Positions 13,177 through 34,279 of a stretch of 64,000 bases of DNA are shown piece by piece. The position numbers and the translations under genes were made by a program. The stretch's first letter is position 1. Every line of letters begins with the position of its first letter. This DNA comes from a virus (lineage: Duplodnaviria; Caudoviricetes): positions 3,871 through 67,870 of IMG/VR virus record IMGVR_UViG_2839589109_000007. One strand, 5' to 3'. The notes beneath the pieces are model-generated. The model worked only from the letters and a program-made list of their open reading frames with translations. It had not been told where the DNA came from and searched no databases.

Positions 13177-13286
13177 TGGAACGGACAATCATTCTTTTTA
13201 CTCAGCAGGTGGTGGGTAGCTGGCCAGCCATTATGGCCGGTCATCGTTTTGAGTGGCAGCGACGCAGAGGCAAGAAGGTCAGGTAA
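13176..13286 (+). CDS. Small 36-aa ORF bridging terL and portal
   Basis: MERTIILFTQQVVGSWPAIMAGHRFEWQRRRGKKVR; TGATG overlap with terL stop and TAATG overlap with portal start. Confidence 0.5.
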   Translation: MERTIILFTQQVVGSWPAIMAGHRFEWQRRRGKKVR

Positions 13287-15322: not shown

Positions 15323-15389
15323 AGTGCAGGAGTTGGATGACATTATCGCCTTGCAGCTCAGGGCAGCGACGTATTTGAAACAGCAGTAA
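15153..15389 (+). CDS. Small post-portal protein
   Basis: GAGGAAG SD; LRVLQGRVQELDDII motif typical of the small gene after podoviral portals; overlaps portal 3' end in another frame. Confidence 0.65.
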   Translation: MPNPMHLKPQEAEAVLTVSNRPEYEVVEEYLLRRRKLLLEKLATCQDSTNLRVLQGRVQELDDIIALQLRAATYLKQQ

Positions 15390-15394
15390 AAACT

Positions 15395-15416
15395 AATCCG
15401 CTTCGGCGGTTTTTTT
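15395..15416 (+). terminator. Intrinsic terminator with cUUCGg tetraloop
   Basis: CCGC-TTCG-GCGG followed by T7. Confidence 0.8.
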
Positions 15417-15557
15417 ATGCCCAGGGATGGGCGGTATGCTGGTAACGCATGGAGCGGTTACCGGTGAATGCCTGAAATATGTGGATAAGCCCAGGCCCCA
15501 CAAGATCAGGTTAAACCAAATGTGGACAAGCCTCAGCGCCCCACAGGGAGAGTGAAG

Positions 15558-16550
15558 ATGGCAATCGATGCCGAACAGTTGGATCAGGAAACTGACGCCG
15601 AACTTGCAGCCCTTATGGGTCTAAATACGGAAGCCCCTGCCGCTTTTGCACAACAAGAGAACGAGCAGGACAAGCAGACCGACCAGAACCCGCCCGCTGA
15701 TAAGTTACCCCCGCCACCTGCACCGGAGCCGGAAGCGACTGACGAAGAGTCAGAGCCACCTGCCCCCACATCTCGTGAAGAGAGCGGTGAAGACTGGCAG
15801 GACAAGTACACCAAAGCGGAAGAGTCCCGCAAGAATGCCCATGCCCTGATGACCCGGGCGACGCAAAAAGCCGCTGATCTGGAGCGCAGCAATACGGAGC
15901 TTCAGCAACAGATGGCTTTGCTGCAAGCCAAAGTGGATCTGCTCAGTCAGCAGAGTCTGAGTCAGCCGAACCAACCCAATAGCGAACCAGAGTCGTCTGA
16001 TCAGTTTCAGGAACTCCGTAAGGACTACCAGGAACTGGATCCGGTGTTTAACAAGCTGGATGAGTCGGAACAGCTCAACCGGAAACTGGAGCAGCGGCTG
16101 GCGGTTATTGAGAAGGCACGGCAGGAGCAGGAGGCCGATCAGGCTCGACAGGCATTCTGGAGCAAGTTGCGCAGTCTTCATCCCGATGTGGAACAAATCT
16201 CTGCCAGTGAGGACTTTAAAGGCTGGTTTGCACGACAAACGGCTGATGTACAGGAACTGAGTCGTGTCAGCCCATTGGGAGCGGCGCAGGTAATGAGTCT
16301 CTATAAAGAGGCTGCCGGTCTGAATAAGCCAGCGCCAAAACCAGCACCCGATCCAGCGCAAAAAATACAGCAGGCAAAACAGATGAGCGAGCCGCCAGTG
16401 CGGTCCCGTTCGAAACCGACCACTCAGGGTCGCCAACCCGCTATGACACTGGAACAGATAGCGGCTATGCCGCAGAAAGAGTTTGATGCCAACGAGGAAA
16501 AACTCGATGAGGTTCTGGCCCAGTGGATTAAGCAGGGAGGTCGGCTCTAA
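15558..16550 (+). CDS. Capsid scaffolding protein
   Basis: Acidic, Pro/Gln-rich coiled-coil protein immediately before the capsid gene; GGGAG SD. Confidence 0.75.
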   Translation: MAIDAEQLDQETDAELAALMGLNTEAPAAFAQQENEQDKQTDQNPPADKLPPPPAPEPEATDEESEPPAPTSREESGEDWQDKYTKAEESRKNAHALMTRATQKAADLERSNTELQQQMALLQAKVDLLSQQSLSQPNQPNSEPESSDQFQELRKDYQELDPVFNKLDESEQLNRKLEQRLAVIEKARQEQEADQARQAFWSKLRSLHPDVEQISASEDFKGWFARQTADVQELSRVSPLGAAQVMSLYKEAAGLNKPAPKPAPDPAQKIQQAKQMSEPPVRSRSKPTTQGRQPAMTLEQIAAMPQKEFDANEEKLDEVLAQWIKQGGRL

Positions 16551-16584
16551 CCGTTTCTCGAAAGAGATTCAAAGGATCTGAATC

Positions 16585-17451
16585 ATGGCAACGACCACGT
16601 TTCCAACGGGGGCTATGGCAAATGCCCTGTCCGTTATTTATTCCAAAAAGCTCAACGCGAAGTTCTATAAACGAACCGTGTTGTCGGCTATCTGCAACAC
16701 CAACTGGGAGGGTGAGATCCAGTCGGAAGGCTCCAAGGTAGTGATCCGTACCCGCCCCGATATTACGGTAGCGGATTATGACCGTGCCGTGGGGGTTGAG
16801 TATCAGGATCTGGAACCACCCAAGGTGGAAATGCCCATCGACAAGACCAAGTACTACGCCTTTATTGATGACTATATCCAGAGTGTCCAGTCCAATATCG
16901 AGCTGATCAACGAGTCTTCTGCTGATGCAGCAGAAAACGTGAAGATCGCGGTAGACGGCGATGTACTTGGGAATATCTATACCGATGTCCATCCAGATAA
17001 CAAGATCGACGGCGGTGGTACCAGCGTGGTTGTGGATAAGTCCAATGTGCTGGATTACATCGTCGATATGGGCACCCTGCTGGACGAGAAGAACATTCCC
17101 GAGTCCGGCCGCTGGCTGGTACTGCCACCCTGGGTGTGCGGGATGATCAAGAAGTCTGAGCTGAAGGATGCGTCACTGGCCGGGGATGGTACCTCCATCA
17201 TGCGTAACGGAAGGCTGGGCATCATTGACCGCTTCACGCTTTACTGCAGCAACAACCTGGCCACCGCTTCAGGCATTACCCAGTGCATGGCGGGTGTGAA
17301 GGACTTTGCCGGGTTTGCATCGCAGTTTATCAAGCATGAGAGCCTGACCCTGGAGAAGCACTTCGGCATGGGGCACCGTGGCCTGCAGGTGTATGGCTAC
17401 AAGGTACTGAAGCCCGATGCTGGTGTGCTGCTGGCAGCCAAACGCTCTTAA
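16585..17451 (+). CDS. Major capsid protein (P22/N4-type podoviral)
   Basis: IYSKKLNAKFYKRTVLSAICNTNWEGEI...GSKVVIRT, RNGRLGIIDRFTLYCSNN, GLQVYGYKVLKP. Confidence 0.92.
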   Translation: MATTTFPTGAMANALSVIYSKKLNAKFYKRTVLSAICNTNWEGEIQSEGSKVVIRTRPDITVADYDRAVGVEYQDLEPPKVEMPIDKTKYYAFIDDYIQSVQSNIELINESSADAAENVKIAVDGDVLGNIYTDVHPDNKIDGGGTSVVVDKSNVLDYIVDMGTLLDEKNIPESGRWLVLPPWVCGMIKKSELKDASLAGDGTSIMRNGRLGIIDRFTLYCSNNLATASGITQCMAGVKDFAGFASQFIKHESLTLEKHFGMGHRGLQVYGYKVLKPDAGVLLAAKRS

Positions 17452-17469
17452 ATTCATGCTTTTATTTTT

Positions 17470-17535
17470 GCCACGGAGACACGGAGGCACAGAGGAAAAG
17501 CCTTTCTTTTCTCCGTGTCTCTGTGCCTCCGTGGC
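17470..17535. repeat. REP-like palindrome built from RCACRGAG 8-mers (copy 1)
   Basis: Left arm GCCACGGAGACACGGAGGCACAGAG, right arm CTCCGTGTCTCTGTGCCTCCGTGGC; 21 of 25 positions complementary. Confidence 0.85.
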
Positions 17536-17560
17536 TAATAAACCAAAAGGATATTGAACT

Positions 17561-17878
17561 ATGGCTTTTGATCTGCAAACCTGCCGCAGCAAGGACGAAC
17601 TGGAGTCCTTTACCCGGCAGATGTTTAACGTGGAGCTGGACAAGCGCAAAAAGCTGGATGATTTAAAAGACGAAGTTCGCTTACTGATGAATGGTGGTGA
17701 TCCGCTGGTAAAACCGGAAGAGCCAGAGGAAGCTACGTCTTCACCTATGGCGGGCAGGAAGCCTTTGCAATTTGTGCTGAACAAGAACACCAATAGCGTC
17801 TTTATCTACAACCCCAGGCTGAAGAAACGGATGGGCGTGGATCTGGAGTTCTGTGACCAGCAAGGTAACCGGCTGTAG
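17561..17878 (+). CDS. Phage hypothetical protein (post-capsid)
   Basis: AAGGA SD; co-oriented in late operon. Confidence 0.7.
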   Translation: MAFDLQTCRSKDELESFTRQMFNVELDKRKKLDDLKDEVRLLMNGGDPLVKPEEPEEATSSPMAGRKPLQFVLNKNTNSVFIYNPRLKKRMGVDLEFCDQQGNRL

Positions 17879-17881
17879 GTT

Positions 17882-18535
17882 ATGAAGGTTACCGACATTA
17901 TCCAGCGGGTTCGCAACTTGCTTCAGGACAATACCACCGTTCCCAGGTGGAGCAATAACGACCTGCTGGATGCCTATAACGAAGCACTGCTGGCCGTGGT
18001 GCAGAACCGGCCTGACGTGAACTCGCAGTTACTGACTTTCACCTGTCAGGCACAGGCCGTGCAGTCGCTGCCGCCTGGCATCTACCGACTGCTGGATATT
18101 GTGGATAACCCGGACACTGGCAGAACGGTGATTGCGACCACCCGCAACAGTCTGGACAGCCTGCTACCCAACTGGACCACGGCCACCGGCATGGAAGTGG
18201 AGCAATTTGTCTACGACCAAAAAAGCCCCGCTGTCTTTTATATCTACCCGGTACCACCAGCGGATCATCAACTGAACCTGTTGGTTAGTCAGGCTCCTGC
18301 TCGAATAGTGATTACGGATTTTGACACCGATACCCAACTATTCAGCCTCGACGAGCTGTGGCTTAACCCGGTGATCAACTACATGTTGTTCAGGGCTTTC
18401 AGCATGGATATGGAAACGGAAGCCAATATGCAGCAGGCCCAGAGTTACCTGGCCATGTTTGCTAATGACCTGGGGCTGAAGTGGAACGTGGATCAAATGT
18501 TTCGGCAGATGCTTCAGGGCAAGGTGAAGGGATAA
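17882..18535 (+). CDS. Head-tail adaptor-like protein (DUF6682-like)
   Basis: IIQRVRNLLQD...RWSNNDLLDAYNEALLAVVQNRPD, FYIYPVP, VINYMLFRAFSMD. Confidence 0.7.
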   Translation: MKVTDIIQRVRNLLQDNTTVPRWSNNDLLDAYNEALLAVVQNRPDVNSQLLTFTCQAQAVQSLPPGIYRLLDIVDNPDTGRTVIATTRNSLDSLLPNWTTATGMEVEQFVYDQKSPAVFYIYPVPPADHQLNLLVSQAPARIVITDFDTDTQLFSLDELWLNPVINYMLFRAFSMDMETEANMQQAQSYLAMFANDLGLKWNVDQMFRQMLQGKVKG

Positions 18536-19141
18536 ATGGAACTGGACGCCTATCTTTCCCGAATCAGGCCTTATGCCAAGGGCTGCCCGGACCAGGTCAT
18601 CAAAAACTATCTGATCATCACCCTGCGGGATATTTGTCATCGGGCGAACCTGTGGCGCCACAGTGACAAGCTGTTTATGGTCAAGGGCATCAAACAATAT
18701 TCCCTGACTGCACCCACGGGAACCGAGATTGCCACGGTGCAGAACATCCAGCGGGAGGACGGTACCCGACTGGAAAGCCGTGATCTGCTCCCCCCGCATA
18801 TTTCCAACGGAACGCCTTACTACTACCGGCACTTTGAGACAACGACACTGACCGTTGCGCCAATCCCGGATAAGAATGAGATGCACGATATTGAACTGAC
18901 CCTGATGCCTGCCTTTGATGCCGTGGAAGTACCTGACGATCTGGGCCAGTTGACATTGGAGTTTGCCTGCTGGGGCGTACTGGCTGATCTGCAAATGATG
19001 CCTGACGAGCCCTGGACCAATCCACAACTGTCAGAAGTGAACCGGCAAAAGTACGAACGGGAGCTGAATAAAAAGCGCATTCGTGGACTGGTGGGTGCCA
19101 GTGGTGGTGAACAGTCGGTGACCCGCAGGAGATTTGTCTGA
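18536..19141 (+). CDS. Phage adaptor / tail tubular A-like protein
   Basis: YLSRIRPYAKGCPD, LQMMPDEPWTNP motifs; position in podoviral tail module. Confidence 0.65.
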   Translation: MELDAYLSRIRPYAKGCPDQVIKNYLIITLRDICHRANLWRHSDKLFMVKGIKQYSLTAPTGTEIATVQNIQREDGTRLESRDLLPPHISNGTPYYYRHFETTTLTVAPIPDKNEMHDIELTLMPAFDAVEVPDDLGQLTLEFACWGVLADLQMMPDEPWTNPQLSEVNRQKYERELNKKRIRGLVGASGGEQSVTRRRFV

Positions 19142-19494
19142 TGCCATTGCCCACATCCACAGATCTTCCACCTATCCTTCGGGGCGACAGCTTCACTATT
19201 CCGGTCGCGTTTACTGATGCTAACGACCAGCCAGCTGACCTGTCGGGCTGGACATTAATTTTCACCCTGAAGTTTCACCGGATGCAGCCTGACAGTGAAG
19301 CGGTATTGCAAAAACGACAGATCATTGCCGGTTCTGAGGCAATAGTTATTGTCACGCCGACGGATACCAATGAGCTGACACCCTATCGCTACGAATACGA
19401 TATCCAGCTTTCCACTCCAGACGGTACCGGTGTCAGAACCTTTATGATGGGTACCATAACCCTCACCTCTGGAGTCACCCACGCCATTTCTTAA
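19141..19494 (+). CDS. BppU-like Ig-fold virion protein
   Basis: ILRGDSFTIPVAFTDANDQPADLSGW...YEYDIQL...MGTITL. Confidence 0.6.
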   Translation: MPLPTSTDLPPILRGDSFTIPVAFTDANDQPADLSGWTLIFTLKFHRMQPDSEAVLQKRQIIAGSEAIVIVTPTDTNELTPYRYEYDIQLSTPDGTGVRTFMMGTITLTSGVTHAIS

Positions 19495-19507
19495 AGATTC
19501 ACCACAA

Positions 19508-19786
19508 TACCCACAGGGCACAAGAGGCACAAAGAACACAAAGAAAAGCTGTTTCTTGTCTTTTCCTTTGTGCCCTTTGCCGTGAAAAATATTTTGCTTA
19601 ACCATTTTTCATCCCTGAGGGTGGCGCAAAATATTTTCACGCGCCATGGGCATTTGTGTCTTTGCCATGAAAGAAAATTGCCACGGAGGCACAGAGCACG
19701 GAGAACAGAAAAACGCTTTTCCTCCGTGTCTCCGTGACTCTGTGGCTAAAGCTTTCATGACAGAGGGTGACAAACCATCGTCATGA
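19508..19786. repeat. Cluster of four tandem hairpins including copy 2 of the RCACRGAG palindrome
   Basis: Degenerate CACAAAG palindrome 19508-19585; GTGAAAAATATTTTGC (19582-19597) inverted with GCAAAATATTTTCAC (19626-19640); GCCACGGAGGCACAGAGCACGGAG...CTCCGTGTCTCCGTGACTCTGTGGC (19680-19746); TCATGAC...GTCATGA (19755-19786). Confidence 0.8.
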
Positions 19787-19819
19787 ACATTTTTGGTTCA
19801 AACCAAACAGGACAAGGAT

Positions 19820-22069
19820 ATGTCAGACCCGAAACTGGCGGATATCAAGGTATCCCTGATCGGTGAGGCCGATCTGATTGTGGCTCAGCGTCAGGCCGTA
19901 GCCGAAGACAAGATAGCCATTGAGCAGATGAAGGCTGATATTGAAAACATGCAGTCTGATGTGGACAACGACCAGAGTGATGTAGCGACGCGCCATACAG
20001 ATATCGTCGCCAAACATGGGGAGGTTGAAGCGGATCGGTTAGAGGTATCCACCAACCGACAAGATGTAGAAGACCGGCAGACCGATATCATCAATCGCCA
20101 GACCGATGTGATCAGTCGACAGTCAGATATCACCGCCAAACACAATACCGTGCTGAACACTGCCGGGGCGGTGGCAAAAGATAAAGTCCGGGTGGCCAGT
20201 GACAAGGTGGACGTTGGCAATACTGTCACTGCATTCAATACTACCGTCGCTAATGCCCTGCAATCACTCACTGATGAAGGCAACCAGCAAAACACCAGAG
20301 TTATCGCCACCGGAGAAAGCCAGGAACGGCGGGTGATTGATGCTGGCGATACCGAACGGGGTGACGTTGTCCAGGAAGGTATAAACCAGCGAAACCTGAT
20401 TAGCACAGAGAGCACCAACCAGCAGACGCTTATCGCCAACAAAGGTACTGAACAATCTGACCGTGTAAAAGCTGAAGGCGATGGTCAGGTACTGCGGGTT
20501 CAAACGGAAGGAAATAACCAGATCAGTCGGGTCATTGTAGAAGGCAATAATCAAACCGCCCGAGCCACCACCGAGGCGGATCGTTCATCCAGTCAAGCCA
20601 ACCTTGCCCAAACCCATCGGAATTACGTTGAAGATTTTGCCGGTCGTTTTGGTAATGTGGATCAGGCCATTACCGATGCCACCGCTCATGCAGCCCGTGC
20701 CAATACCGAAGCCAACCGCTCCAAGTCGGAAGCGAATCGTTCAACAGATAATAACGCACTGGCAGAAAGCCATGCTGACCGGGCGGATGCTGCCGCCAGT
20801 CGAGCGGATGAAATTGCAGGGTTGAAAACGGTAAGGGATGCCCTGGTTGCCTCTTCGCTTCCGGCACCGGATTTTCATCTACCACTGACTTCTGATTTAC
20901 AGATCCGTGAAGGTTTCGGCCCCGCAGATCAGCTGGATATTTCTCCAGCCCGGGATGGCAGCCAGCTGATCAACCTGCCTACCCGCTCAGCGTCGTTCCA
21001 TCGCAACGGCATTAAGTGGTATACCAATAAATCCGGTGTGCTTACCAAAGCCGAGATTAACGAACCTGCCTTTGAGCAGGAGGGTATTCTGATTGAAGGC
21101 AGTAGCACCAATATTGTCCCCCGCAGCAATCATTTCTCATCTCACTGGGTAAAGTATCCCGATGGTTCGACCACCGTGATTACCGACAACGCCGAAACTG
21201 GCCCCGATAATATTGAAAACTCAGCCGCACAGCTGGATTTTGTTGGTAACAGCGCCTGGCTGCTGACATACAACCTGAGCGGATTCGATCAGACAAAAGC
21301 CCATACCGCATCTATCTGGATGAAAGGCAGTGTCGGCGGCGAACAGATCAAGATCGATTTTAAAAATCAGGCGTCAGTAGGCCAGCAGGGAGCGACTTTT
21401 AATCTCACTACCCAGTGGCAGCGCTACCAGGTCAGTTCCGTTGATCCCGGTGATGGTAATCACAATATTCAGGGCTTTCAGGTCCGTAAAAACGACGGTG
21501 TCCCCGGCACCATTTTTATTTATGGCGTCCAGCTGGAAGCACTGCCATTCGCCACTTCCTATATTCCTACCGATGGCAGTGTTGCAAGCCGGGAACAGGA
21601 TTATCTGAACATTCCCCGTGCAAACAATCTTGTGCACAGCTCCCGCACCCCCATGAGCTGGAGTATCGATTTCAACACTCTGGGGGAAATACCCGGTGCG
21701 ACCAACTACCTGATTTTTTGCAATGGCTATAACCCAGATTACGATGTCTCTGGCTGGGCGCTGGTGGTGTGGCCCCGCTCCGGTTCTTATGATGGTCTGC
21801 GGGTACGTCAGGGCATTGATATAATTATGCCTGCGGTGACGGATACCCAAATGCATCGGCTGGTCAGTTCAGGAGAGGAACAAAAACTGATCGTCTATCT
21901 GGATGGACAGCAGATTGGCTCAGGGAATCAGGGGAATCTTACCCGTATCTATAACTCCAATGATGTAGCCTTGGGTCGTGCCGGAGAGCAGTGTCTCAAT
22001 GGTCATATCCGGGATTTCAGAATCTGGCACCGGGCGTTAACCCCTGAGCAGGTCAGCGTGCTGGGGTAA
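19820..22069 (+). CDS. Tail or head fibre: coiled-coil stalk, carbohydrate-binding-like domain and C-terminal LamG/ConA-like domain
   Basis: Heptad and 11-residue repeats; EGILIEGSSTN, GVQLEALPFATSYIPTDGS, YLDGQQIG, LNGHIRDFRIWHRALT. Confidence 0.8.
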   Translation: MSDPKLADIKVSLIGEADLIVAQRQAVAEDKIAIEQMKADIENMQSDVDNDQSDVATRHTDIVAKHGEVEADRLEVSTNRQDVEDRQTDIINRQTDVISRQSDITAKHNTVLNTAGAVAKDKVRVASDKVDVGNTVTAFNTTVANALQSLTDEGNQQNTRVIATGESQERRVIDAGDTERGDVVQEGINQRNLISTESTNQQTLIANKGTEQSDRVKAEGDGQVLRVQTEGNNQISRVIVEGNNQTARATTEADRSSSQANLAQTHRNYVEDFAGRFGNVDQAITDATAHAARANTEANRSKSEANRSTDNNALAESHADRADAAASRADEIAGLKTVRDALVASSLPAPDFHLPLTSDLQIREGFGPADQLDISPARDGSQLINLPTRSASFHRNGIKWYTNKSGVLTKAEINEPAFEQEGILIEGSSTNIVPRSNHFSSHWVKYPDGSTTVITDNAETGPDNIENSAAQLDFVGNSAWLLTYNLSGFDQTKAHTASIWMKGSVGGEQIKIDFKNQASVGQQGATFNLTTQWQRYQVSSVDPGDGNHNIQGFQVRKNDGVPGTIFIYGVQLEALPFATSYIPTDGSVASREQDYLNIPRANNLVHSSRTPMSWSIDFNTLGEIPGATNYLIFCNGYNPDYDVSGWALVVWPRSGSYDGLRVRQGIDIIMPAVTDTQMHRLVSSGEEQKLIVYLDGQQIGSGNQGNLTRIYNSNDVALGRAGEQCLNGHIRDFRIWHRALTPEQVSVLG

Positions 22070-22072: not shown

Positions 22073-23020
22073 ATGAAAATCGACATCACTTCTTTTACCG
22101 GAGAAGTCCCCTGGCTGGACAGCCACTTGCTGGAAGATACGCAGGCAGAGGCGGCGGTGGATTGTCGTTTAACCAATGGCAGTCTGAGAGCCTATCGTGC
22201 GCCGCTGGTTGAGCAGGTACTGAACGATACCCCGCAGTCTGTTTACCTGTATCGCAACGAAGGTAACCGCTATTGGTTTGACTGGACGGAAGATGTGGAT
22301 GTGATCCGTTCCCCAGTGGCTGACGATCCCAACAATCGAGTGTATTTCACTGGCACCGTCAAGGGGCCAAGATACACCGATAACGGCCTGGCCCTGAGTG
22401 GTGGCAGTGACTATCCGGTCAATGACCATCAGCTTGGACTGCCAGAGCCGGACGTGGCCCCCGTGGTGACGCTCAGTGGTACACCGCTGGACGATGCTGA
22501 AGCAGTGGATGCCGAAACCCGTTTCTACACCTACACCTGGGTGGACGAAAACGGACGGGAAGGACCGCCATCGCTGCCCTCCGGTGAGATTGTGGTGAAA
22601 CCCGGTGAAACGGTGGACATTACCGTGGGCTCAGGTCCCGGTGCCGTGGACCTGAACATTACCCATTACCGGATTTACACCAGTACCCAGATCGGCGTGT
22701 ATCAGCTTTGCACCCAGATCAACAACGCCGGAACGGTGGCCACCGATACCCCCGTAGGTGTCACCACTGTGGTGGATCAAACGCCGTTGGACCAACGGGG
22801 AGGTATCCTGAAAACCATCGGCTGGATAGCACCACCCATCAACCTGCAAGGCATGGTGGTGCTGCCCGGTGGTGTGGCAGCGGGATTCTCCGGCAAGGAG
22901 CTGATGTTCAGTGAGCCTTACCATTTGTACGCCTGGCCAGCGGCCTACCGGCTGGCGGTGGAGTATGACATTCAGTCACTGGCGGTGGCCGCCAACAGTG
23001 TGCAATGTACAACAATATAA
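22073..23020 (+). pseudogene. Podoviral tail tubular/stabilisation protein, N-terminal part; truncated by insertion of prophage B
   Basis: MKIDITSFTGEVP...CRLTNGSLRAY start and FSEPYHLYAWPAAY motif; homologous-looking sequence ends at AANSV (23002), followed by QCTTI-stop read from AT-rich foreign DNA. Confidence 0.7.
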
Positions 23021-23046
23021 TTGCACCTTCGTCGATGTTATTGCAC
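22981..23046. other. Putative attL of prophage B
   Basis: GC-rich coding arm then GTGCAAT-13bp-ATTGCAC (23000-23026) and a further ATTGCAC (23040-23046), just upstream of the recombinase SD. Confidence 0.55.
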
Positions 23047-23062
23047 GATTATAGGAGGCATT

Positions 23063-24673
23063 ATGACGATAATAAAAACAATGGACTCAACGATTACACG
23101 GACGACCTACTGTTACTCATATCACCGCATCTCAACTCGTAACCAGTTAAAAGGTGGCGGTATTAAACGCCAGATAGAAGACAGTTCCAGATTCTGCGAA
23201 GCACAGAACTGGGTGATGGATACGACCTTCAAACTCACCGATATCGGCACCTCTGCCTACCATGGTAAAAACCTTGATGATCGTGCTGCACTTGGGAGCT
23301 TTCTCAAAGCGGCGGATGATGGCCTCGTTAAACGTCCTGCTGTCCTTCTGGTGGAAAGTCTGGATCGATTAAGCCGGGCAAATATCATGGATGCTCTGGA
23401 ACTGTTTATTCGTATATTGAATGCCGGTATTTCTATCTGCACTTACCACGACCGGATGATATACAGCAAGGAAAGTATTCAGGCCAATTTCGGCCCACTA
23501 CTTATTTCTATTACCATTATGTGCCGGGCTCATGAAGAAAGTGAGACAAAATCAAAACGAGTTAAAAGAAGCTGGATTCAGATGCGTGAGAAAATCCGGA
23601 ATGGGGGCATTGGCAGCAAAAAAATATATCCAAAATGGATATCAACAGAGAGTGGGAGGCCAGAAATCATTGAAAGCGAAGCTAAAATAATTCGAGAAAT
23701 TTTTGATCTTTGTGTCAATCACAATATGAGCTATACAGATATTATTGTCGAAATGAGAAAACGACACAATAACAATATTAATTTAAGGAGTTATCAGCTC
23801 AATCGCCTTTTTCGTCATAAAAATGTTCTTGGAATATACTGTACTACTGGCGCTCAAGCAGGAGAGGAAATTAAGGCATATCCTGCCATTATCAGCGAGG
23901 ATATGTACTATAAAGCCAAAGCTCTAATTAAAGAGCGGATTTCAGTCCGGGTTGGTCAACCAACGAAGTATGAAATTAATTTTTTTAAAACCAAACTATC
24001 CTGTGGAGATTGCGGTTACGCAATTACATCCAATAGGGCAAACAGGTCGACCTCTTACCTTTGCAGAGAAAAACTTAAAACAAAGACTGCCTGCAAACAA
24101 AGTTCAAAGATAACGGCTAAAAAATTTCAACCCGTCCTTTTGTACGCCATCTCACTGATCGACAAAGACGATATGCTGGAAAGTGCTGCTAACAGTAAGA
24201 AGGCCAAGCTCTCCAAGGCAATCAATACTAAACAGGCTGAGCTAGAAGATAAGCAAACTCGTATGGATAACCTTGCTGATCTGGTTGCAGCCGGGTCCAA
24301 AAAAGGAGTTCAGATGGTGGTTCAGCTTGAGGGCGAAGTTGATACTATCCTGCAAGATATAGCAACAATGCAAGACCAGCTGGATATGCTTAATTCGCCC
24401 ACTATGGCCGCAAGCATTGATCACGCAAACGAGTTTGGCAGGAAATTTATTCTTGGGCAGGCCACCAAGGAAGATCAGGAGCCATTCGTTCAAGCACTTG
24501 GAAATATAGTGGAAAAGATAGTAATTCATTCTCCTGAGAAAGAAGGCCAGAGAACCATTGCCATTATTAAACTGCTTTCAGGTATAGATATAAGGGTTGT
24601 AGTAGAAAAGGATTATTCCGCAGATATTTTCAAGGGGAAAAAACGTATCGGCCGCTTTACACCGAAGGGGTAG
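23063..24673 (+). CDS. Large serine recombinase (integrase)
   Basis: YSYHRISTRNQ catalytic Ser motif, LLVESLDRLSR, AHEESETKSKRV, YPAIISED recombinase domain, CGDCG...YLC...C zinc ribbon, coiled coil; AGGAGG SD. Confidence 0.95.
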   Translation: MTIIKTMDSTITRTTYCYSYHRISTRNQLKGGGIKRQIEDSSRFCEAQNWVMDTTFKLTDIGTSAYHGKNLDDRAALGSFLKAADDGLVKRPAVLLVESLDRLSRANIMDALELFIRILNAGISICTYHDRMIYSKESIQANFGPLLISITIMCRAHEESETKSKRVKRSWIQMREKIRNGGIGSKKIYPKWISTESGRPEIIESEAKIIREIFDLCVNHNMSYTDIIVEMRKRHNNNINLRSYQLNRLFRHKNVLGIYCTTGAQAGEEIKAYPAIISEDMYYKAKALIKERISVRVGQPTKYEINFFKTKLSCGDCGYAITSNRANRSTSYLCREKLKTKTACKQSSKITAKKFQPVLLYAISLIDKDDMLESAANSKKAKLSKAINTKQAELEDKQTRMDNLADLVAAGSKKGVQMVVQLEGEVDTILQDIATMQDQLDMLNSPTMAASIDHANEFGRKFILGQATKEDQEPFVQALGNIVEKIVIHSPEKEGQRTIAIIKLLSGIDIRVVVEKDYSADIFKGKKRIGRFTPKG

Positions 24674-24874
24674 TCACCCCTTCCGGTTAGCCTTAATCCA
24701 TTGATCAACAAGGGAGTTAAGTACACTCCCTTCTTTTTTCCCCTTTTCCTTCACCAGTTGGATAAATTCATCAACCTTCTGGTTCGAAATCACAAAACCA
24801 TAAGCGATAGAGTCATCACGAATACATTGTTGAATAAGGTCCATATCCTTATCATTCTGTTCATCATTTGTCAT
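24674..24874 (-). CDS. Small putative DNA-binding protein (ribbon-helix-helix-like); candidate directionality factor
   Basis: 66 aa, abuts recombinase stop convergently; FVISNQKVDEFIQLVKEKGKKEGSVLNSLVDQWI strand-helix-helix pattern. Confidence 0.45.
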   Translation of the reverse strand: MTNDEQNDKDMDLIQQCIRDDSIAYGFVISNQKVDEFIQLVKEKGKKEGSVLNSLVDQWIKANRKG

Positions 24875-24885: not shown

Positions 24886-26598
24886 CTAAAAATCAATATC
24901 CGTATCAAAGACATCAAAATGATCAGCGTTGAATCCCTCTGGTTTTGGGCGACCTGCCGGGTTGTCATTCCATTCGCTTGGTGTGCCTGCTTTTACCGTA
25001 AAGTCATAAGCCCTTACCCGCTGCCAGCGCCCGTCTTGAATAACTTCTATACGACAAGGTTCTTTCATATCCCGAACCACATTAATCCGGTTCAGTGCAT
25101 CGTCGGTGAATTCTGGGCAGGGTTCATGGTTAAAGCGTTTCACCCACCAGATCACGGCTTTCTGTCGTGCATAACCGCCATATTCAAAGCAGACCCATTC
25201 ACGGATTGTTTCCAGGCCGCAGCGATAAGAGACCTGCATCGAGGGTGGTTTGCCTGTTTTCTCATGAAGGGTGTAAATGATTTCATCCACATCAAACCAT
25301 TCCGGTTCAATCTGGTTCGCCAACAGTGCGGCGCTGGATGCTTCTGCTTCATGCTTTTCCCGTTCCGGGAATTCATAGTGGCAGGCAGGGCAGATTTGCA
25401 GGCCTGCAAGAATCAGTTCAAAGCATTCCGGGCATTCCTTAACCGGCGGTTCTCCGGAGCCTTTACCTGCTTTTATATGGTCAACAGTGATGCGGTCAAT
25501 CGGTCCATGGCGTTCAACGTTGCCGCCATAATCCAGTACCAGGCAATCCGTCTTTCCAGTCTCAGGGCTGATGCGAAGGCCTCGTCCTAAAATCTGAACA
25601 TACAGTCCGGGAGATTTAGTGGCTCGAAGCAGAGCAATCATATCGGTCAGAGGGGCATCAAAACCGGTGGTCAGGACGCCTTGGCTGGTAAGCGCTTTTA
25701 TCTTTCCTGCTTTATAGTTTGCCAGAATCCGAGTCCGGTCATCTTTTGGGGTTTCTCCGGTGAGGCATTCGGCCTCAACACCCTCAGCTACCAGTAATTC
25801 TTTGACCTGTTCAGCATGTGCCACACTGACGCAGAAGATCAGCCATGCTTTCCGCTCCTGACCGTACTGAATGATTTCTGTCACCGCTTTTTCGGTGACA
25901 TCGTTTTTGTTGACTGCGGCTTCCATATCACTGGTGCGATAATCGCCCTGCCGGGTTCTGACGCCAGTAAGATCAATTTTCTTTTTTCCAGCTTTGGAAC
26001 GCAGAGGCGATAGAAAACCATCGTCAATTAATCGCTGAATGTCGGTCTCGTAGACAATCTCATCAAACAGGGGCTGCTTTCCTTCCGTCAGTAAACCCTG
26101 TTTCATGCGGTAGGGAGTGGCCGTAAAACCAATAATTTTCAGTGCAGGATTCATGTCCCGAAGACCAGCAATCAGTCGAGAGTACATCGTTTCTGAGCTT
26201 TCACTATTGAGCAGATGGCATTCATCAATAACGAGTAAATCACAATGACCTAATTCCTCAGCCCGTTTATGAACACTCTGGATGCTGGCAAACAGTATCT
26301 GAGCATCAGTATTGCGGGAATTCATAGAGGCCGAGTAAATACCCGTCGGAGCCTCCGGCCACTGGGCAACAATCTTTTCATGGTTCTGTTCAATGATCTC
26401 TTTCACATGGGAAAGAACCAGGAACCGCTGATCTGGCCATTTATTCAGAACCCCGTGGATAAAGTCAGCAATAATCACAGACTTGCCACCACCGGTACTG
26501 ACGCAAACCAGCGGGTTGCCATTGGCGGCGCTGAAATACTGATAGATGGCATCAATAGCCTCCCGCTGATACCAGCGGAGCTCAAAAGCCACGATCAA
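24886..26598 (-). CDS. SF2 DEAD/DEAH-box helicase
   Basis: LRWYQREA Q-motif, STGGGKS, IDECH, GFTATP, LTTGFDAP, QILGRGLR; C-terminal CPEC...CPAC. Confidence 0.95.
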   Translation of the reverse strand: MIVAFELRWYQREAIDAIYQYFSAANGNPLVCVSTGGGKSVIIADFIHGVLNKWPDQRFLVLSHVKEIIEQNHEKIVAQWPEAPTGIYSASMNSRNTDAQILFASIQSVHKRAEELGHCDLLVIDECHLLNSESSETMYSRLIAGLRDMNPALKIIGFTATPYRMKQGLLTEGKQPLFDEIVYETDIQRLIDDGFLSPLRSKAGKKKIDLTGVRTRQGDYRTSDMEAAVNKNDVTEKAVTEIIQYGQERKAWLIFCVSVAHAEQVKELLVAEGVEAECLTGETPKDDRTRILANYKAGKIKALTSQGVLTTGFDAPLTDMIALLRATKSPGLYVQILGRGLRISPETGKTDCLVLDYGGNVERHGPIDRITVDHIKAGKGSGEPPVKECPECFELILAGLQICPACHYEFPEREKHEAEASSAALLANQIEPEWFDVDEIIYTLHEKTGKPPSMQVSYRCGLETIREWVCFEYGGYARQKAVIWWVKRFNHEPCPEFTDDALNRINVVRDMKEPCRIEVIQDGRWQRVRAYDFTVKAGTPSEWNDNPAGRPKPEGFNADHFDVFDTDIDF

Positions 26599-27058
26599 AA
26601 CCCTTCATCTGGTTAATGATCTGATTGGCTACGCGCTCAGTCGCTTTGCGGTCAGTGGTTGTTGGTATCCCGTCGCTTGTCTTCCTCACCTGAAGCATTT
26701 TATCCGCAATGCTGTAGGCAAAATTTACGGCTGGCTCAATGGCCGTGCCCCGGTTGCAGGTAAACTCCCCCATCAGCGCAGCAATGGCAAACAGATCCCT
26801 GAGTTGGATAGATTGGCTTTTAAACTGTTCTAACTGGTTTTCCAGGTTGTTGATGGTTTCATCGCAAGCCGCTTGAGCGTATTGATCAAAAGAAGCGGTA
26901 TCTTCGATCAGATAATGAGAGACCTGCGGGTAGAAATTGCCTTGCTGGTAGTCTGTTATGCACAGCCCACTGTCCCCATTGAGACCAACCAGGTCAATCT
27001 GGTCTTCTGCAGGTGGATTGCTTACAGGTATGAAGCGATAGCGTTTGGAATGATCCAT
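26582..27058 (-). CDS. Phage hypothetical protein with LRDxFA...AYxxADxML motif
   Basis: LRDLFAIAALMG...AYSIADKMLQVR, a recurrent small phage motif of unknown function. Confidence 0.7.
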   Translation of the reverse strand: MDHSKRYRFIPVSNPPAEDQIDLVGLNGDSGLCITDYQQGNFYPQVSHYLIEDTASFDQYAQAACDETINNLENQLEQFKSQSIQLRDLFAIAALMGEFTCNRGTAIEPAVNFAYSIADKMLQVRKTSDGIPTTTDRKATERVANQIINQMKGFDRGF

Positions 27059-27073
27059 TGCTCATTTTCCTTC

Positions 27074-28126
27074 TCATTGATTATTTTCAATCGTTCCATC
27101 GAACTGGGTTTTCAGCCCTGCCAGCTTTTCATCCGTCAGCAGGCGTTTGTCTTCTACTGCCTGAATTTCCCGGGAGGAAAACTGCCCTTTATCCGTACCG
27201 GTAACAAACTCTTCGCCGGTAGACTTCAGGCGATAGCGTATCCAGTACTCACCGCTATCAGTGGGCTCGGCAAATTGCTCTAACAGGTAGGGGTTATAGA
27301 GGTGGAGTTCACAGCCGGACTTCTGAACAGATTCCGGAATATCCATATCATGACGGGCGCAGTGCCACTCACCTTCCTCAATTGGAGTGCTGTGCATACA
27401 GGTACGACAATTAACCGCAGGGGCTTCCTGACCATGGCAGATGGCCTGGTGGTCACAGAATTTGCAAAGGTACCAGCTGGGGTCTTCGGTGATTTTGCAC
27501 AGCGGACGGTCACTGGCAATAATGCCCTCGGCCTTTTGTAACGTTGCCTTACCAATTACCGGGTCAAGACGAACCCGTTCACCATACAGCTCATCCGTAT
27601 TCTTATTCACAGCTATATAGAAGGCTCTGGTCAGTTGGGGATTGGCCAGATACATATAGACCTGCATCTGAATAAAGTGCTCTGGCTTGGCTTCCTGCAC
27701 TCCCTTCTTAACCAGGTTATTGAAGGATTTTTCATTGTGGGTTTTCATCTCGATCAGGTGCCAGGTTTTGGGGGCTTCGATAAAGCCCAGACCCACACCA
27801 TCAAATGAACCACCAAAATGGCCGTTGCAGGCTGAGACTCTGAACTGTTTGCCGGTGGCAGGATCGGTTTCAAATACCTTTATTCCGATACTGCGCAGAT
27901 CAGATACGAATCGTTCCTCTGCCAGATGACCAGTTTGAAAGAGTCGCAGCAGTTGGCCACCATGCTTTACATCAGAACACCAGCGAAAGGTATACCAGAG
28001 TGCCCGGTCACAGGGGCGACCAATAATTGAACCGCCCAGATGCGCCCGCATTACACCACCCTGGTTGTCCTCATAATGCCGGATAATCGCTTTGATGGTC
28101 GTTTTGTTGGATTCGGGGATTTTCAC
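27074..28126 (-). CDS. Cas4-like PD-(D/E)XK exonuclease (phage recombination)
   Basis: IGRPCDRALWY, TGHLAE, GSFDG, IEMKT, QMQVYM, CKFCDHQAIC Fe-S cysteines. Confidence 0.88.
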   Translation of the reverse strand: MKIPESNKTTIKAIIRHYEDNQGGVMRAHLGGSIIGRPCDRALWYTFRWCSDVKHGGQLLRLFQTGHLAEERFVSDLRSIGIKVFETDPATGKQFRVSACNGHFGGSFDGVGLGFIEAPKTWHLIEMKTHNEKSFNNLVKKGVQEAKPEHFIQMQVYMYLANPQLTRAFYIAVNKNTDELYGERVRLDPVIGKATLQKAEGIIASDRPLCKITEDPSWYLCKFCDHQAICHGQEAPAVNCRTCMHSTPIEEGEWHCARHDMDIPESVQKSGCELHLYNPYLLEQFAEPTDSGEYWIRYRLKSTGEEFVTGTDKGQFSSREIQAVEDKRLLTDEKLAGLKTQFDGTIENNQ

Positions 28127-28153
28127 AATGATTCGCCTTCCCTGGCTCTGAGC

Positions 28154-28294
28154 CTATTTCTGCTTTCTGTTTAACCGTCTGGCAATTCGCTGGGCTTTGC
28201 GCTTTCGCTTTCTCTCTGTTTTGGAGGGTCGTCGTTTGGTGAATCGGGCTTTATCCAGCTTTCGGGCGGAGGTGCCCGTTGAATTGAAAAACAT
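28154..28294 (-). CDS. Unannotated 46-aa Arg/Lys-rich peptide
   Basis: MFFNSTGTSARKLDKARFTKRRPSKTERKRKRKAQRIARRLNRKQK, translated by hand; AGGA SD 9 nt upstream. Confidence 0.55.
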   Translation of the reverse strand: MFFNSTGTSARKLDKARFTKRRPSKTERKRKRKAQRIARRLNRKQK

Positions 28295-28312
28295 AACTTT
28301 CTTTCCTGGATG

Positions 28313-28330
28313 AAGGGGGCAAGCCCCCTT
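28313..28330 (-). other. Stable hairpin with CUUG loop after DUF669 gene
   Basis: AAGGGGG-CTTG-CCCCCTT on the minus strand; no clear U tract. Confidence 0.5.
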
Positions 28331-28339
28331 GATGAATGG

Positions 28340-28849
28340 CTATTTTTGTCCCCACGGTGGCGCAGCGTACTGAGTGGCTGGATGGGCTGCTTGTTGGGCT
28401 GGCGCAGGGTTGTGGGCTGGTGTCTGCTGCTGAGGTGCAGGGGCATTCTGCATGGGCTGACCACCCACATTGATCCATTTTTTTACTTCATTTTTAGGGC
28501 CATAACCCGGATCATTCTTGACCACCACCCGAATCCGAACCACCTGATTCAATAGTTGATCCGTGTCGCTGATCATTGGCTGACCAATGGCGTGAGCAAT
28601 TCGGCTGAGTTCTTTCCTGCCGATTTCCTCTGCCCTGGGGCTCCGGTTTTCAATGTTGTGTTGTGACCAGAGTTTCCGGCTCTCATGCGGTCCTTCCATA
28701 ATGGTGTAGGTCAGTTTCACCATACGACCGCCAGTTTTAGTGTTTTCCAGCGATGATTCGGTGATCATGGTCAGGTACTCACCAGCCGGTAGCGGCTCAA
28801 ATTCATCGGTGGGATCGTAGTCACCGGCGTTAAAACCTAACTGTGCCAT
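28340..28849 (-). CDS. DUF669 family protein (phage SSB-like)
   Basis: FEPLPAGEYLTMITES...EGPHESRKLW, NEVKKW, Pro/Gln tail ending PPWGQK. Confidence 0.8.
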   Translation of the reverse strand: MAQLGFNAGDYDPTDEFEPLPAGEYLTMITESSLENTKTGGRMVKLTYTIMEGPHESRKLWSQHNIENRSPRAEEIGRKELSRIAHAIGQPMISDTDQLLNQVVRIRVVVKNDPGYGPKNEVKKWINVGGQPMQNAPAPQQQTPAHNPAPAQQAAHPATQYAAPPWGQK

Positions 28850-28864
28850 GGGCAATCTCCTTAT

Positions 28865-29635
28865 TTATTGGCTTGGGTTATTGGTCAGTGCGTCACTAAA
28901 GGCCTGCCAGTTCAACGGCAGCTCTGGCGGCAGCCCGTAACGGTTTTTAGCAACAAAGCTCGGACGAGCTTCGGTATAGAGATAACGTTGGCCGGTGCTG
29001 ATGCCACGGGCTTTCACCTTATTGAAACCGGCTTCTTCTTTCTCAATGACGGTTTTGTAATCCGCAAACAACACGCAATCCACCGACTCCATGATCAGCT
29101 CACTGGCGCGTTTGTGAAGCTTGATCTGGTAGCGGTCATAACTGTCGGTCATTGGACTTTCAAACCGCTTGATTTCGGAATGGGCGATCAGGATAAAAGC
29201 CATGCCTTTGTCATTGCGCAGGGCAAACAGCGCATTCAACAGCTGTCGCCATAAATCCAGGGCGAACATAAAGCCTTTGCCGTAACCAAAATCTTCAACC
29301 GATTCGTAACGCTCACCTTTCGGACCAACATAGTGTTGGCAAAGGTGAATCCATAACAAGTTCTCAAGGTGATCCAGGCTATCGAGAACCACGGTTTGGT
29401 ATTTATGATCACTGCTATACAAAGCGTGAAGGGCATCCAGAACATCCTGGAAGCTTTTCATCAACGGGAACGCATCCACTTCCAGCTTGCCAAGCCCATC
29501 CTCGGTGCAAATAAAAATAGGGTTGGGCGCCCCGGCTGCCAGAGAGGTTTTCCCCACGCCAGATGAACCATGGATGACCAGTGCTGGGGCTTTAAAACCC
29601 AGTGAGCGGCTGATGGAGTTGAGTGTAATCGCCAT
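28865..29635 (-). CDS. AAA family ATPase (Sak4-like phage recombinase)
   Basis: IHGSSGVGKTS, FICTEDG, VVLDSLDHLE, LIAHS, AKNRYGLP. Confidence 0.88.
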   Translation of the reverse strand: MAITLNSISRSLGFKAPALVIHGSSGVGKTSLAAGAPNPIFICTEDGLGKLEVDAFPLMKSFQDVLDALHALYSSDHKYQTVVLDSLDHLENLLWIHLCQHYVGPKGERYESVEDFGYGKGFMFALDLWRQLLNALFALRNDKGMAFILIAHSEIKRFESPMTDSYDRYQIKLHKRASELIMESVDCVLFADYKTVIEKEEAGFNKVKARGISTGQRYLYTEARPSFVAKNRYGLPPELPLNWQAFSDALTNNPSQ

Positions 29636-30045
29636 TACTTGTCCTCCAGCCGTTCATACTTCACGGCCACTTTTTTGGGTTTGGTGGTGATGGCTTCTGC
29701 GACAATGGTGTAGTGAGCCGGATCAAGCAGCTGCAAGCTCTTCAACTGTTTGATGTTCAGTTCTACTTTGGTGCGAACAAGCCCTGCTGACAGTGATTGC
29801 GGGATACGCTTTTTGACGTCTTCCCACTTTTTCTGATCAAGGGTTCTGGTGAACCCTGCAGACGTTGTTACCTTGTAGTAGTCACCTTTGATGGACTGGC
29901 TTCCCTCATCTTTTACGCCCACCATATCGCACAACTTCTGTTCAATATCGAGGCGGTGATTCCTGGCATGCTCTTCGGATTTTTTAGCCCGCTCTAACTC
30001 GTAGGCGAGTTTGTCCAGCCGTGAAGCATCATTGCTTTCGGTCAT
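29635..30045 (-). CDS. Phage hypothetical protein of the Sak4 recombination module
   Basis: ATG overlaps with AAA gene; GDYYKVT...RTLDQ...RTKVELN...KPKKVAV. Confidence 0.7.
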   Translation of the reverse strand: MTESNDASRLDKLAYELERAKKSEEHARNHRLDIEQKLCDMVGVKDEGSQSIKGDYYKVTTSAGFTRTLDQKKWEDVKKRIPQSLSAGLVRTKVELNIKQLKSLQLLDPAHYTIVAEAITTKPKKVAVKYERLEDK

Positions 30046-30084
30046 AGCAATTCCTTTTGTTGTGGTTTTGGGGTGGGTCAGCCG

Positions 30085-30390
30085 TTAACTGGCCTGTTTA
30101 TCCTCTGATTCCAGAAGCTCTTGCAGCTCAGGGACTCGATGCAATTCGGGGTATCCCTGGTTCCCGGATGTATCAATGAGGATGCCATTGGTGGTAAACA
30201 GCGCAGGGATCTGCTTGTCCGGAAGGTTGTCTTTTAATTCTGAGAGAAGATCAATGAGCAGGTTGCGGGTCTTTTCCAGGTCATTCCGTAATTTTGCGGC
30301 ACGGAGATCAAGGGCTTGAGCTTCCTGCTCCATGGTTAATACATCGTTGGCGGTTACTCCTATTACCGTTTTCTGATCAGCAAGTGTCAT
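30085..30390 (-). CDS. Phage hypothetical protein, first gene of leftward operon of B
   Basis: 101-aa coiled-coil ORF downstream of intergenic promoter region. Confidence 0.6.
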   Translation of the reverse strand: MTLADQKTVIGVTANDVLTMEQEAQALDLRAAKLRNDLEKTRNLLIDLLSELKDNLPDKQIPALFTTNGILIDTSGNQGYPELHRVPELQELLESEDKQAS

Positions 30391-30505
30391 TGTCGCTTAC
30401 CGTTTAGAGTTATTGTTCAATCAGTAAGCATTAGACTGCCAACAGCAAAAACCGCTGTCAACGAAAAAATAAACTTTCCTAATATTTTTTGTTTTTTGTA
30501 TTTCG

Positions 30506-31132
30506 CTAAGGAAGGCAAAAACAGCCAATAGCCTGTCCGATGTAGTTATCTCTTAACACCGAAAGGGACTGAAACCGGGGGTTGTTGAACACCAGCATAG
30601 ACTGGCAGTTGAGTTCTTCATAAGTCCCCAGGACGGGTCCCTGATCCTGAAAAAGGCACACCTTACCTGCTTCAGCTGACAACTTCGGATCAATAAACAC
30701 CAGAGAACCATTGGGGTAGCTGGTACACGGCATGCCATGGTTATCCATTGATGAGCCGGTCACGGTCAGGCAGAAAGCCTGCTCACTGCAATCCACCGGA
30801 CAATTGCGCCAGGCCACATCATCCGGGGCTATCCGGTTAACCACCCAATCGGCAATATCCCCATCGGTCAAATGCGGCAGTGCCCTGCCAATACTCACTG
30901 TTGGCTCGACAGCACCTTTACCGGAGATAATGTAATGGGGATCAACATTGAGAACCGTGGCAATTTCATACTGCATTTTCAGGACATTTTTATCGGTAAA
31001 ACTGACGTTGTCCCCGAGCCAGATGGACACGGTGGGCTTTGTCACGCCCAGTTTTGCCGCCAGCTGAGTCTGTGTCATTTTTCTCTTCTTCAGGAGAACT
31101 TTTACCCTATCCTTCCAGCTCGTCATTGCCAT
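30506..31132 (-). CDS. CI-like repressor (XRE HTH + S24-like domain)
   Basis: MTQTQLAAKLGVTKPTVSIWL HTH; CPVDCSEQAFCLTVTGSSM...YPNGSLVFIDP...NNPRF. Confidence 0.9.
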   Translation of the reverse strand: MAMTSWKDRVKVLLKKRKMTQTQLAAKLGVTKPTVSIWLGDNVSFTDKNVLKMQYEIATVLNVDPHYIISGKGAVEPTVSIGRALPHLTDGDIADWVVNRIAPDDVAWRNCPVDCSEQAFCLTVTGSSMDNHGMPCTSYPNGSLVFIDPKLSAEAGKVCLFQDQGPVLGTYEELNCQSMLVFNNPRFQSLSVLRDNYIGQAIGCFCLP

Positions 31133-31299
31133 CTTCCTTATCTGTCCTGCCCCAATTATCAGGAAATAGTGAAAGTGAGTAAACCAACAAGCCTACTCCA
31201 ATACAGAAAACACTAAACATATTTGATTAAATAAGTTTATCGCGATAATAATTTAAGTCCCGACCATGAAGCCCAACACTAAACAAGGAGGTTGCGCCA

Positions 31300-31533
31300 A
31301 TGGATAAGCCTACGCCGGGAGAAATTATCAGGACTTATCGGGAATGTCGCGGTATGACACTGACCAGTTTGAGCAGAGTGCTGTACTGCTCCAAGTCTGA
31401 ACTGTCTCTGTTTGAGAACAACCGAAAGCCCATCGGCAAACTCAGAAGACTGCTCTGGTCAACCATTATCCCGGAATGGACACCGGATATGCTCACCCAC
31501 AAAGGGCAAAAGCCCTGCAATGACTGGCAATAA
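31300..31533 (+). CDS. Cro-like XRE HTH protein
   Basis: IIRTYRECRGMTLTSLSRVLYCSKSELSLFENNRK; divergent from CI; AAGGAGG SD. Confidence 0.8.
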   Translation: MDKPTPGEIIRTYRECRGMTLTSLSRVLYCSKSELSLFENNRKPIGKLRRLLWSTIIPEWTPDMLTHKGQKPCNDWQ

Positions 31534-31560
31534 CAATAACCACTCACAGGACAGCATGAC

Positions 31561-33811: not shown

Positions 33812-34279
33812 ATGAAAATAGTGATAGGAATAGATCCGGGACTGACGGGAGGTATAGCGGTTCTGGAGAGTGAGAGTAAGGAGTTAATCAAAGTCGTAGA
33901 TATGCCCATTATTCCCGAGGGAAGCAAGAAAAAAGTAAGCGGTCATGGCTTGATGAAAATATTTGGTGGCTATACCCGGCATCAGGTGGAGATGGTCTAT
34001 CTGGAAAAGGTGGGAGCAAGGCCAGGACAGGGCGTGGTCTCCATGTTTAACTTTGGCCGTTCGTATGGTGCTGTAGAAGCTGCAGTCAGCTTAATGGGTT
34101 TTCCCCTTACCTATGTAACTCCCCAACGCTGGAAACGCTCTGCTGGACTTATGGGAGCTCACAAGGATGCATCGAGAGGAAAAGTGTTAGACCTCTACCC
34201 GGAGGCTGACGTTCATCGAAAAAAAGACAATGGACGTGCTGATGCTGTGCTCATTGCCCGATATGGAGAATCGGTATGA
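33812..34279 (+). CDS. RuvC-like Holliday junction resolvase
   Basis: VIGIDPGLTGGIA, VYLEKVGARPGQGVVSMFNFG, VTPQRWK, GRADAVLIA. Confidence 0.9.
   Translation: MKIVIGIDPGLTGGIAVLESESKELIKVVDMPIIPEGSKKKVSGHGLMKIFGGYTRHQVEMVYLEKVGARPGQGVVSMFNFGRSYGAVEAAVSLMGFPLTYVTPQRWKRSAGLMGAHKDASRGKVLDLYPEADVHRKKDNGRADAVLIARYGESV

Follow-up and report, generated by a model that had tools for sequence, protein, structure and literature searches.

Why does a podoviral tail gene with an otherwise normal reading frame break off directly in front of an integrase gene, and is the phage that begins there inserted in the first one by accident or as part of a switch? This question is raised by a stretch of 64,000 nucleotides (nt) of Caudoviricetes DNA (hereafter the window; IMG/VR record IMGVR_UViG_2839589109_000007, positions 3,871 to 67,870), which corresponds to positions 3873-67872 of C250, a contig of 109,288 bp in a draft Endozoicomonas genome. 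An earlier, sequence-only reading had proposed that the tail gene at 22073 belongs to a podovirus, prophage A, and is interrupted by a siphovirus, prophage B, inserted by its own serine integrase. The missing half of the gene, the two junctions and the frame that results from joining them all agree with this proposal, and it is very probable that the locus is a nested lysogeny generated by site-specific recombination, in which B is inserted in the tail nozzle gene of A.

The split nozzle gene and its missing half

The left end of the interruption can be read directly in the window, as previously described. The open reading frame (ORF) starting at 22073 runs in frame through AAC-AGT-GTG (N-S-V) up to 23002, continues for five foreign codons (QCTTI) and ends with TAA at 23018-23020 (ORF end 23020), and the GC content drops across the junction from 0.578 in the kilobase 22001-23000 to 0.406 in 23001-24000. 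The product of 315 amino acids (aa) covers only positions 320-621 of the 862 of phrog_511 in a PHROG profile search and shares 86% identity with residues 2-315 of a 543-aa paralogue encoded in the same genome, the similarity stopping at N-S. Full-length homologues measure 539-546 aa in Endozoicomonas and 566 aa in the Stx2-converting phage 86 and do not end near residue 310, so that the gene at 22073 is cut short, as had been supposed; a naturally short protein is ruled out by these lengths and by the presence of the 3' half on the same contig.

This 3' half is located past the window end, still on C250 and in the same orientation. A tblastn search with the intact paralogue (C85:6977-8608) placed residues 1-315 at C250:25942-26886 and residues 301-543 at C250:79648-80397 (85% identity, same strand as the 5' part), the second piece matching positions 617-858 of phrog_511 and being complementary to the first. 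The distance between the gene halves is 52,806 bp. The in-frame 3' half, followed by podoviral genes, comes directly after the far end of B, and genes of prophage A are thus found on both sides of B in one contig. The absence of the remaining genes of A, noted earlier, is true of the window but is not a loss, because A resumes at C250:79681, 11.8 kb past the window end.

The tail-gene identity was borne out and could be narrowed. The intact paralogue matches chain A of PDB entry 8jov (a 577-aa chain present in six copies, E 2e-53), and the neighbouring adaptor-type protein encoded at 17882-18535 matches the twelve-copy chain 8jov_2, the nature of 8JOV as a tail complex being taken only from its chain counts and molecule names; moreover, the gene downstream of the nozzle 3' half carries a Phage_Tail_Tip domain (Pfam). 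The tail of Stx phage phi24B consists of the portal, two dodecameric adaptor rings and the hexameric nozzle gp57, in whose lumen the needle gp56 is anchored, and its nearest architecture is that of Ralstonia phage GP4 (bioRxiv 10.64898/2026.04.10.717836). Both its homology and its place in the gene order assign the split gene to the hexameric tail nozzle, a component that by analogy would be single-copy and essential to the short tail. Like the GP4/phi24B-type nozzle (8JOV chain A, gp57), to which it is homologous, it lies between the fibre and the needle/tail-tip genes, and once joined it encodes 549 aa; in this case, however, it is interrupted after codon 310 and shows about 35% identity to the Stx-phage protein.

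Junctions, integrase and the two phages

The left junction (attL) reads ...GCCGCCAACAGTG-TG-CAATGTACAACAATATAATTGCAC... and the right one (attR) ...TTATTGTTGCTTGCATTG-TG-ATCATTGCCACGGATGG..., with only TGTG in common and without a long direct repeat. The attP site deduced from them has the arms ...TTGCTTGCATTG-TG-CAATGTACAACAA... and forms an imperfect palindrome, CATTG-TG-CAATG, with an imperfect symmetry extending outward (TTGTTG...CAACAA) around the TG, which is itself non-palindromic. Inverted repeats around a non-palindromic 2-bp core are the usual attP layout of serine integrases, and in both respects, the short common TGTG and the palindromic attP, the junctions show serine-integrase anatomy.

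The insertion site in the nozzle gene is AACAGTG-TG-ATCATTGCC (codons N-S-V-I-I-A), and joining the arms at TG gives an open frame of 549 aa, without stop codons, with 87.6% identity to the whole paralogue and the same C-terminus. The joined 120-nt site aligns gap-free with uninterrupted nozzle genes of sister genomes (97.5% identity in G021, 96.7% in G019 and 95% in G015), and the closest relative (94%, Endozoicomonas sp. ALB091) continues through the site uninterrupted. Zero bases were lost or gained in the insertion, and both gene halves are intact, co-oriented and in frame. The inserted DNA, prophage B, measures 52,806 bp (C250:26875-79680) and occupies the window from 23003 on; in the whole assembly no second copy of attB and no assembled attB or attP junction was found elsewhere. 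Misassembly or deletion is ruled out by the gap-free joined site, the complementary halves and the palindromic attP. In particular, an artefact in which two prophages were wrongly joined at a repeat, as might occur in a draft assembly of 309 contigs, is extremely improbable, since a single 109-kb contig carries both junctions, the co-oriented, in-frame halves are complementary to the base, and a palindromic attP beside a serine integrase gene is unexpected from a chimera. Each of the refuting outcomes named beforehand in the sequence-only reading that was looked into turned out in favour of insertion.

The gene adjoining attL is opened by AGGAGG and an ATG at 23063 and encodes 536 aa up to 24673. 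The protein matches Resolvase (PF00239, 50.5 bits, cut-off 23.3), Recombinase (PF07508, 28.5 bits, cut-off 21.1), the zinc ribbon Zn_ribbon_recom (PF13408, 24.7 bits, slightly below the Pfam cut-off of 25.3) and the integrase family phrog_95 (E 4e-59), and carries the catalytic-serine motif YHRISTRNQ at residues 20-28. By these predicted domains, which the short att sites fit, it is a large serine recombinase of the phage integrase type. The motif ACAATATAATTGC, located inside CAATGTACAACAATATAATTGCAC of the P' arm, recurs beside most of the related integrases (45-65% identity).

In the proposed mechanism, this integrase would have recombined attP with the nozzle site at TG. As long as B remained integrated, A would make only the 315-aa nozzle stump and should fail to assemble an infectious tail, because the nozzle hexamer closes the tail and holds the needle; the earlier expectation that A is disabled while B sits there is in line with the reduction of the nozzle to this stump. 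The integrase together with a directionality factor would then excise B exactly, restoring the 549-aa nozzle gene. The nozzle gene could represent a dependable landing site without cost to the bacterium, because prophages of the A type are widespread in Endozoicomonas and occur in multiple copies.

The coordinates of the two phages are collected in Table 1. Prophage A is, by its predicted gene content, a podovirus of the Stx-phage/GP4 type in an Endozoicomonas genome; its other ORFs, the 2,545-aa giant protein among them, are full length, with sizes equal to those of the paralogous module on C85, and A therefore looks intact apart from B. A tandem tRNA-Leu(CAG) pair (91% alike) and a 45-nt partial copy are located by the integrase of A (C250:1134-1340 and 908-952), and a near-identical tRNA-integrase junction is also present on contig C285. 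A 12-bp repeat (C250:1354-1365 and 104355-104366) was rejected as the ends of A, being at chance level (E 0.49). No DNA match was obtained in E. coli genomes; the assignment of the organism to Endozoicomonas follows from protein source names. For B, described earlier as a second complete phage, the PHROG matches give a full siphovirus gene set, and it can be regarded as a complete-looking temperate siphovirus with predicted defence cargo. The 703-aa protein encoded directly after its last tail gene (60792-62903) has weak GHKL ATPase matches (HATPase_c at 24.3 bits, below the cut-off) and no PADLOC or PHROG family. Further on, a type I operon (L006:2340-9735, C250:70212-77607) includes hsdM (567 aa), hsdS (437 aa) and hsdR (1051 aa), the last two being separated by a 401-aa SIR2_2/ThsA-like gene, and an HNH protein and a WYL regulator lie on the flanks.

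Table 1. Predicted features of prophages A and B (window coordinates unless C250 is given)
Position	Strand	Feature	Basis
C250:1134-2483, upstream of window		A, left end: two tRNA-Leu(CAG) genes and tyrosine integrase	aragorn, Pfam
1..22069	+	A, left arm	PHROG matches
		A, Rha	Pfam
967-3489	minus	A, RecE/Erf	PHROG
4645-5313	minus	A, CI-like S24 repressor	PHROG
5904-7572		A, replication genes	PHROG
8117-9472		A, methyltransferase	PHROG
10182-10580		A, endolysin	PHROG
11171-13176		A, terminase	PHROG
13253-15322		A, portal	PHROG
16585-17451		A, major capsid protein	PHROG
17882-19141		A, two adaptor-type proteins	PHROG; 17882-18535 matches 8jov_2
19793-22069		A, tail fibre	PHROG
22073..23002	+	A, tail nozzle gene, 5' part, 310 codons	PHROG, paralogue alignment, PDB match
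23001..23002	+	Crossover dinucleotide TG of attL	junction comparison, attP palindrome centre, gap-free joined-site match
23003..23062	+	attP P' arm and integrase leader: CAATGTACAACAATATAATTGCAC, ATTGCAC repeat, AGGAGG ribosome-binding site	sequence
23063..24673	+	B, large serine integrase, 536 aa	Pfam domains, phrog_95, translation
24710..24732	+	Terminator-like hairpin and T run directly after integrase gene	consensus scan
24886..33558	mixed	B, early region	PHROG
within 24886..33558	minus	B, helicase, Cas4-type exonuclease, single-stranded DNA-binding protein (SSB), Sak4-like annealing protein	PHROG
30506-31132	minus	B, CI-like repressor, S24 self-cleaving type	PHROG
31300-31533		B, small cro-position gene	PHROG
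31561-33558		B, primase/helicase	PHROG
33812..38361	+	B, middle region: RuvC-like resolvase, ParB-like protein, ABC-ATPase/GNAT protein	PHROG
34276-34839	+	B, Q-like antiterminator	PHROG
35926-36752	+	B, amidase endolysin and holin	PHROG
40131..60292	+	B, virion module of a long-tailed phage: small and large terminase, portal, head protease, major head protein, major tail protein, 999-aa tape measure, distal tail and tip proteins	PHROG
60792..64000, on to attR at window-equivalent 75808		B, cargo region, about 15 kb	Pfam, PADLOC
60792-62903		B, GHKL-type ATPase protein, 703 aa	Pfam
beyond window		B, HNH protein, type I restriction-modification, SIR2-domain gene, WYL regulator, 150-aa ORF	Pfam, PADLOC
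C250:79679-79680 (window-equivalent 75808), outside window	+	Crossover TG of attR	junction comparison
same contig, after 3' nozzle half		A, 919-aa Phage_Tail_Tip (needle/tail-tip) protein	Pfam, PHROG
further on		A, two structural ORFs sized as in the paralogous prophage	
further on		A, 2,545-aa giant ORF, ejection-protein kind	
further on		A, 1,040-aa protein	

The nozzle gene as a probable target of B

Of the 20 other genomes examined in the genus, 10 encode nozzle homologues, frequently more than one, and the majority of the genus's nozzle genes retain the site with its TG core. The C85 paralogue is the only other attB-like sequence found in the genome. The sole intact paralogue (C85:6977-8608, L003/L031) carries GC for TG at the crossover, AACAGTG-GC-ATCATT, with the consequent change of Val to Gly (site at about C85:7651-7702, genome G000), and in sister-genome homologues the dinucleotide is mostly TG, with one TC and one TA. 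Since serine integrases need matching cores in attP and attB, the C85 copy may be refractory to B through its GC core, either by escape or by chance. Two further nozzle copies were observed in the genome. The third (C143:7700-8400, minus strand) is decayed, with several stop codons and an internal deletion whose left breakpoint lies ~16 nt before the attB core and is joined to the last ~20 codons; the fourth, on C267, is truncated at residue 353, immediately behind a sequence resembling the 3' end of a transposase gene.

Relatives of the integrase occur in 16 of 63 family genomes, counting the genome of the window. When their insertion sites were tabulated, the use of a phage structural gene as attB, suggested by the sequence-only reading, held for this locus, but the relatives were found at other sites, none adjoining a nozzle gene. 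Some of those sharing 45-65% identity lie in host genes for an NMT1-like binding protein, a rhodanese and an ABC-F ATPase, and these flanks rule out that all integrase relatives target mobile-element genes. Some of them do: 64%-identical integrases are found inside the OrfA gene (HTH_Tnp_1) of IS3-family insertion sequences (IS) at L009/L065 (G015:C278, NZ_JAGHQW010000069) and L027 (G024:C404), where OrfA is split between the codons E-F-K and E-S-A-V; the uninterrupted site reads GAGTTCAAGGAATCTGCT, G015 holds three uninterrupted copies, and the flank at L027 is the other half of the OrfA gene in opposite orientation. NZ_JAGHQW010000069 is labelled Salinisphaera sp. G21_0, yet it is placed in the genus of the Endozoicomonas genome of the window. 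A 53%-identical integrase at L015:3174-3458 (G023:C426) abuts an ORF that ends ...AIEVCAYAIMSNHY and resembles the HUH region of an IS200/RayT-type transposase, without a Pfam match at E 0.01.

Several results weigh against the nesting of one working phage in another and against the nozzle as the regular site of B. The integrase adjoins a nozzle gene in none of the 15 other family genomes that contain relatives, which leaves a single instance, and within the named genome collection and IMG/VR the search for related loci led back to this contig alone. The attP site was not found in viral contigs, nor were attP and attL in metagenome contigs, and in a search of 5.8 billion proteins nothing else stopped close to residue 315. 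Pfam and PHROGs identified none of the small ORFs near either end of B as a recombination directionality factor. Finally, the functionality of A is judged from its intact ORFs, by which it looks intact, and many A-like copies in the genus are decayed by IS elements, frameshifts and deletions.

The uniqueness of the insertion and the decay of A-like prophages would suit an incidental or secondary-site integration, a dead end without a role in which the nozzle merely resembles the true attB or was hit by chance, the more so as serine integrases are known to use pseudo-sites. Such an event is nevertheless unlikely: nowhere else in the genome is there an attB-like sequence that matches as well or better, the stretch of coding sequence with its TG core is conserved across most of the genus's nozzle genes, and both gene halves and both phages are intact, which points to a recent or maintained state.

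An integration of B by site-specific recombination at the nozzle gene, as preferred here, does not by itself imply a regulatory role. The exact insertion, reversible on paper through the joined 549-aa frame, the conservation of the site in the genus and the location of the 64%-identical sister-genome integrase in another multi-copy mobile-element gene, IS3 OrfA, are consistent with an evolved excision-dependent switch or hyperparasitism, in which B would target A-type prophages and the induction of A would trigger the excision of B; in addition, A and B each encode a CI-like repressor of the self-cleaving S24 type, so that both could respond to SOS. This explanation, deduced from sequence throughout, is quite unlikely, since the insertion is a single occurrence, other integrase relatives lie in ordinary host genes, and a serine integrase alone normally does not excise, a directionality factor being needed that was not recognized in B. 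Equally doubtful is the variant in which the late transcription of A reads into the integrase gene and B either gates the virions of A or exploits its replication. The integrase gene starts 43 nt past the stop of the nozzle stump, a consensus scan of 23003..23062 gave neither a promoter-like nor a terminator-like site on the plus strand, and immediately after the integrase gene comes a terminator-like hairpin; because the strand is the same and no terminator-like site intervenes, late transcription of A could reach the integrase gene. It is rather improbable that B has specialised in parasitising A-type prophages, with the nozzle codons as regular attB, an induction coupled via read-through and an infectivity of A that awaits the departure of B.

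Should the nozzle be the regular site of B, phage-phage conflict could act through integration, with the virion assembly of a rival silenced reversibly, and the idea of the prophage as a switch would widen from host genes to those of other viruses. Polylysogeny would also gain a mechanism in Endozoicomonas, coral and sponge symbionts crowded with prophages and insertion sequences. If B parasitises A-type prophages, resident phages would be pressed to change the 2-bp core, and the intact paralogue carries GC. With integrase, attP and attB all defined and a non-cognate core (GC) occurring naturally, the system offers a ready specificity test. As one genomic snapshot, the locus is for now a well-documented curiosity.

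Comparison with known systems

Elements that act as switches by splitting a gene are known in Bacillus, as SPbeta in spsM and skin in sigK. In Listeria, the comK prophage phi10403S/A118 splits its target gene by means of a serine integrase, a condition termed 'active lysogeny' (PMC7397523). The comK, spsM and sigK elements share with B a large serine integrase at attL, a short core in the coding sequence without a long repeat, and an exact excision that would restore the reading frame; they split host genes, whereas here the split gene is a presumably essential virion gene of another temperate phage.

Prophage-in-prophage arrangements were described in Shiga-toxin-producing and enteropathogenic E. 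coli, where the attB copies are thought to be chromosome-derived and all the host prophages are apparently defective (PMC8112680). As in the present case, the inner prophage is flanked on both sides by the outer one and is due to site-specific recombination; in contrast, that text contains neither serine integrases nor tail genes, while here attB is the nozzle coding sequence itself, without a chromosomal counterpart in the genome, and the outer prophage looks otherwise intact. In Anoxybacillus sp. DT3-1, prophageDT-a is located within prophageDT-b (PMC3948429); this nest, too, has two sets of attachment sites and an inner prophage that disrupts the outer one, but the outer prophage is a partial remnant and, unlike here, no precise in-frame split of a structural gene is described. 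Among the targets of serine integrases, a large survey singles out competence genes, and its main text is silent on structural genes of phages (PMC10083194); phrase searches of the literature, which may miss cases, found no serine-integrase phage in an essential virion gene of an otherwise intact temperate phage. Nested prophages are already known, as are serine-integrase prophages that split genes; in the present case the two are combined at a presumably essential virion gene.

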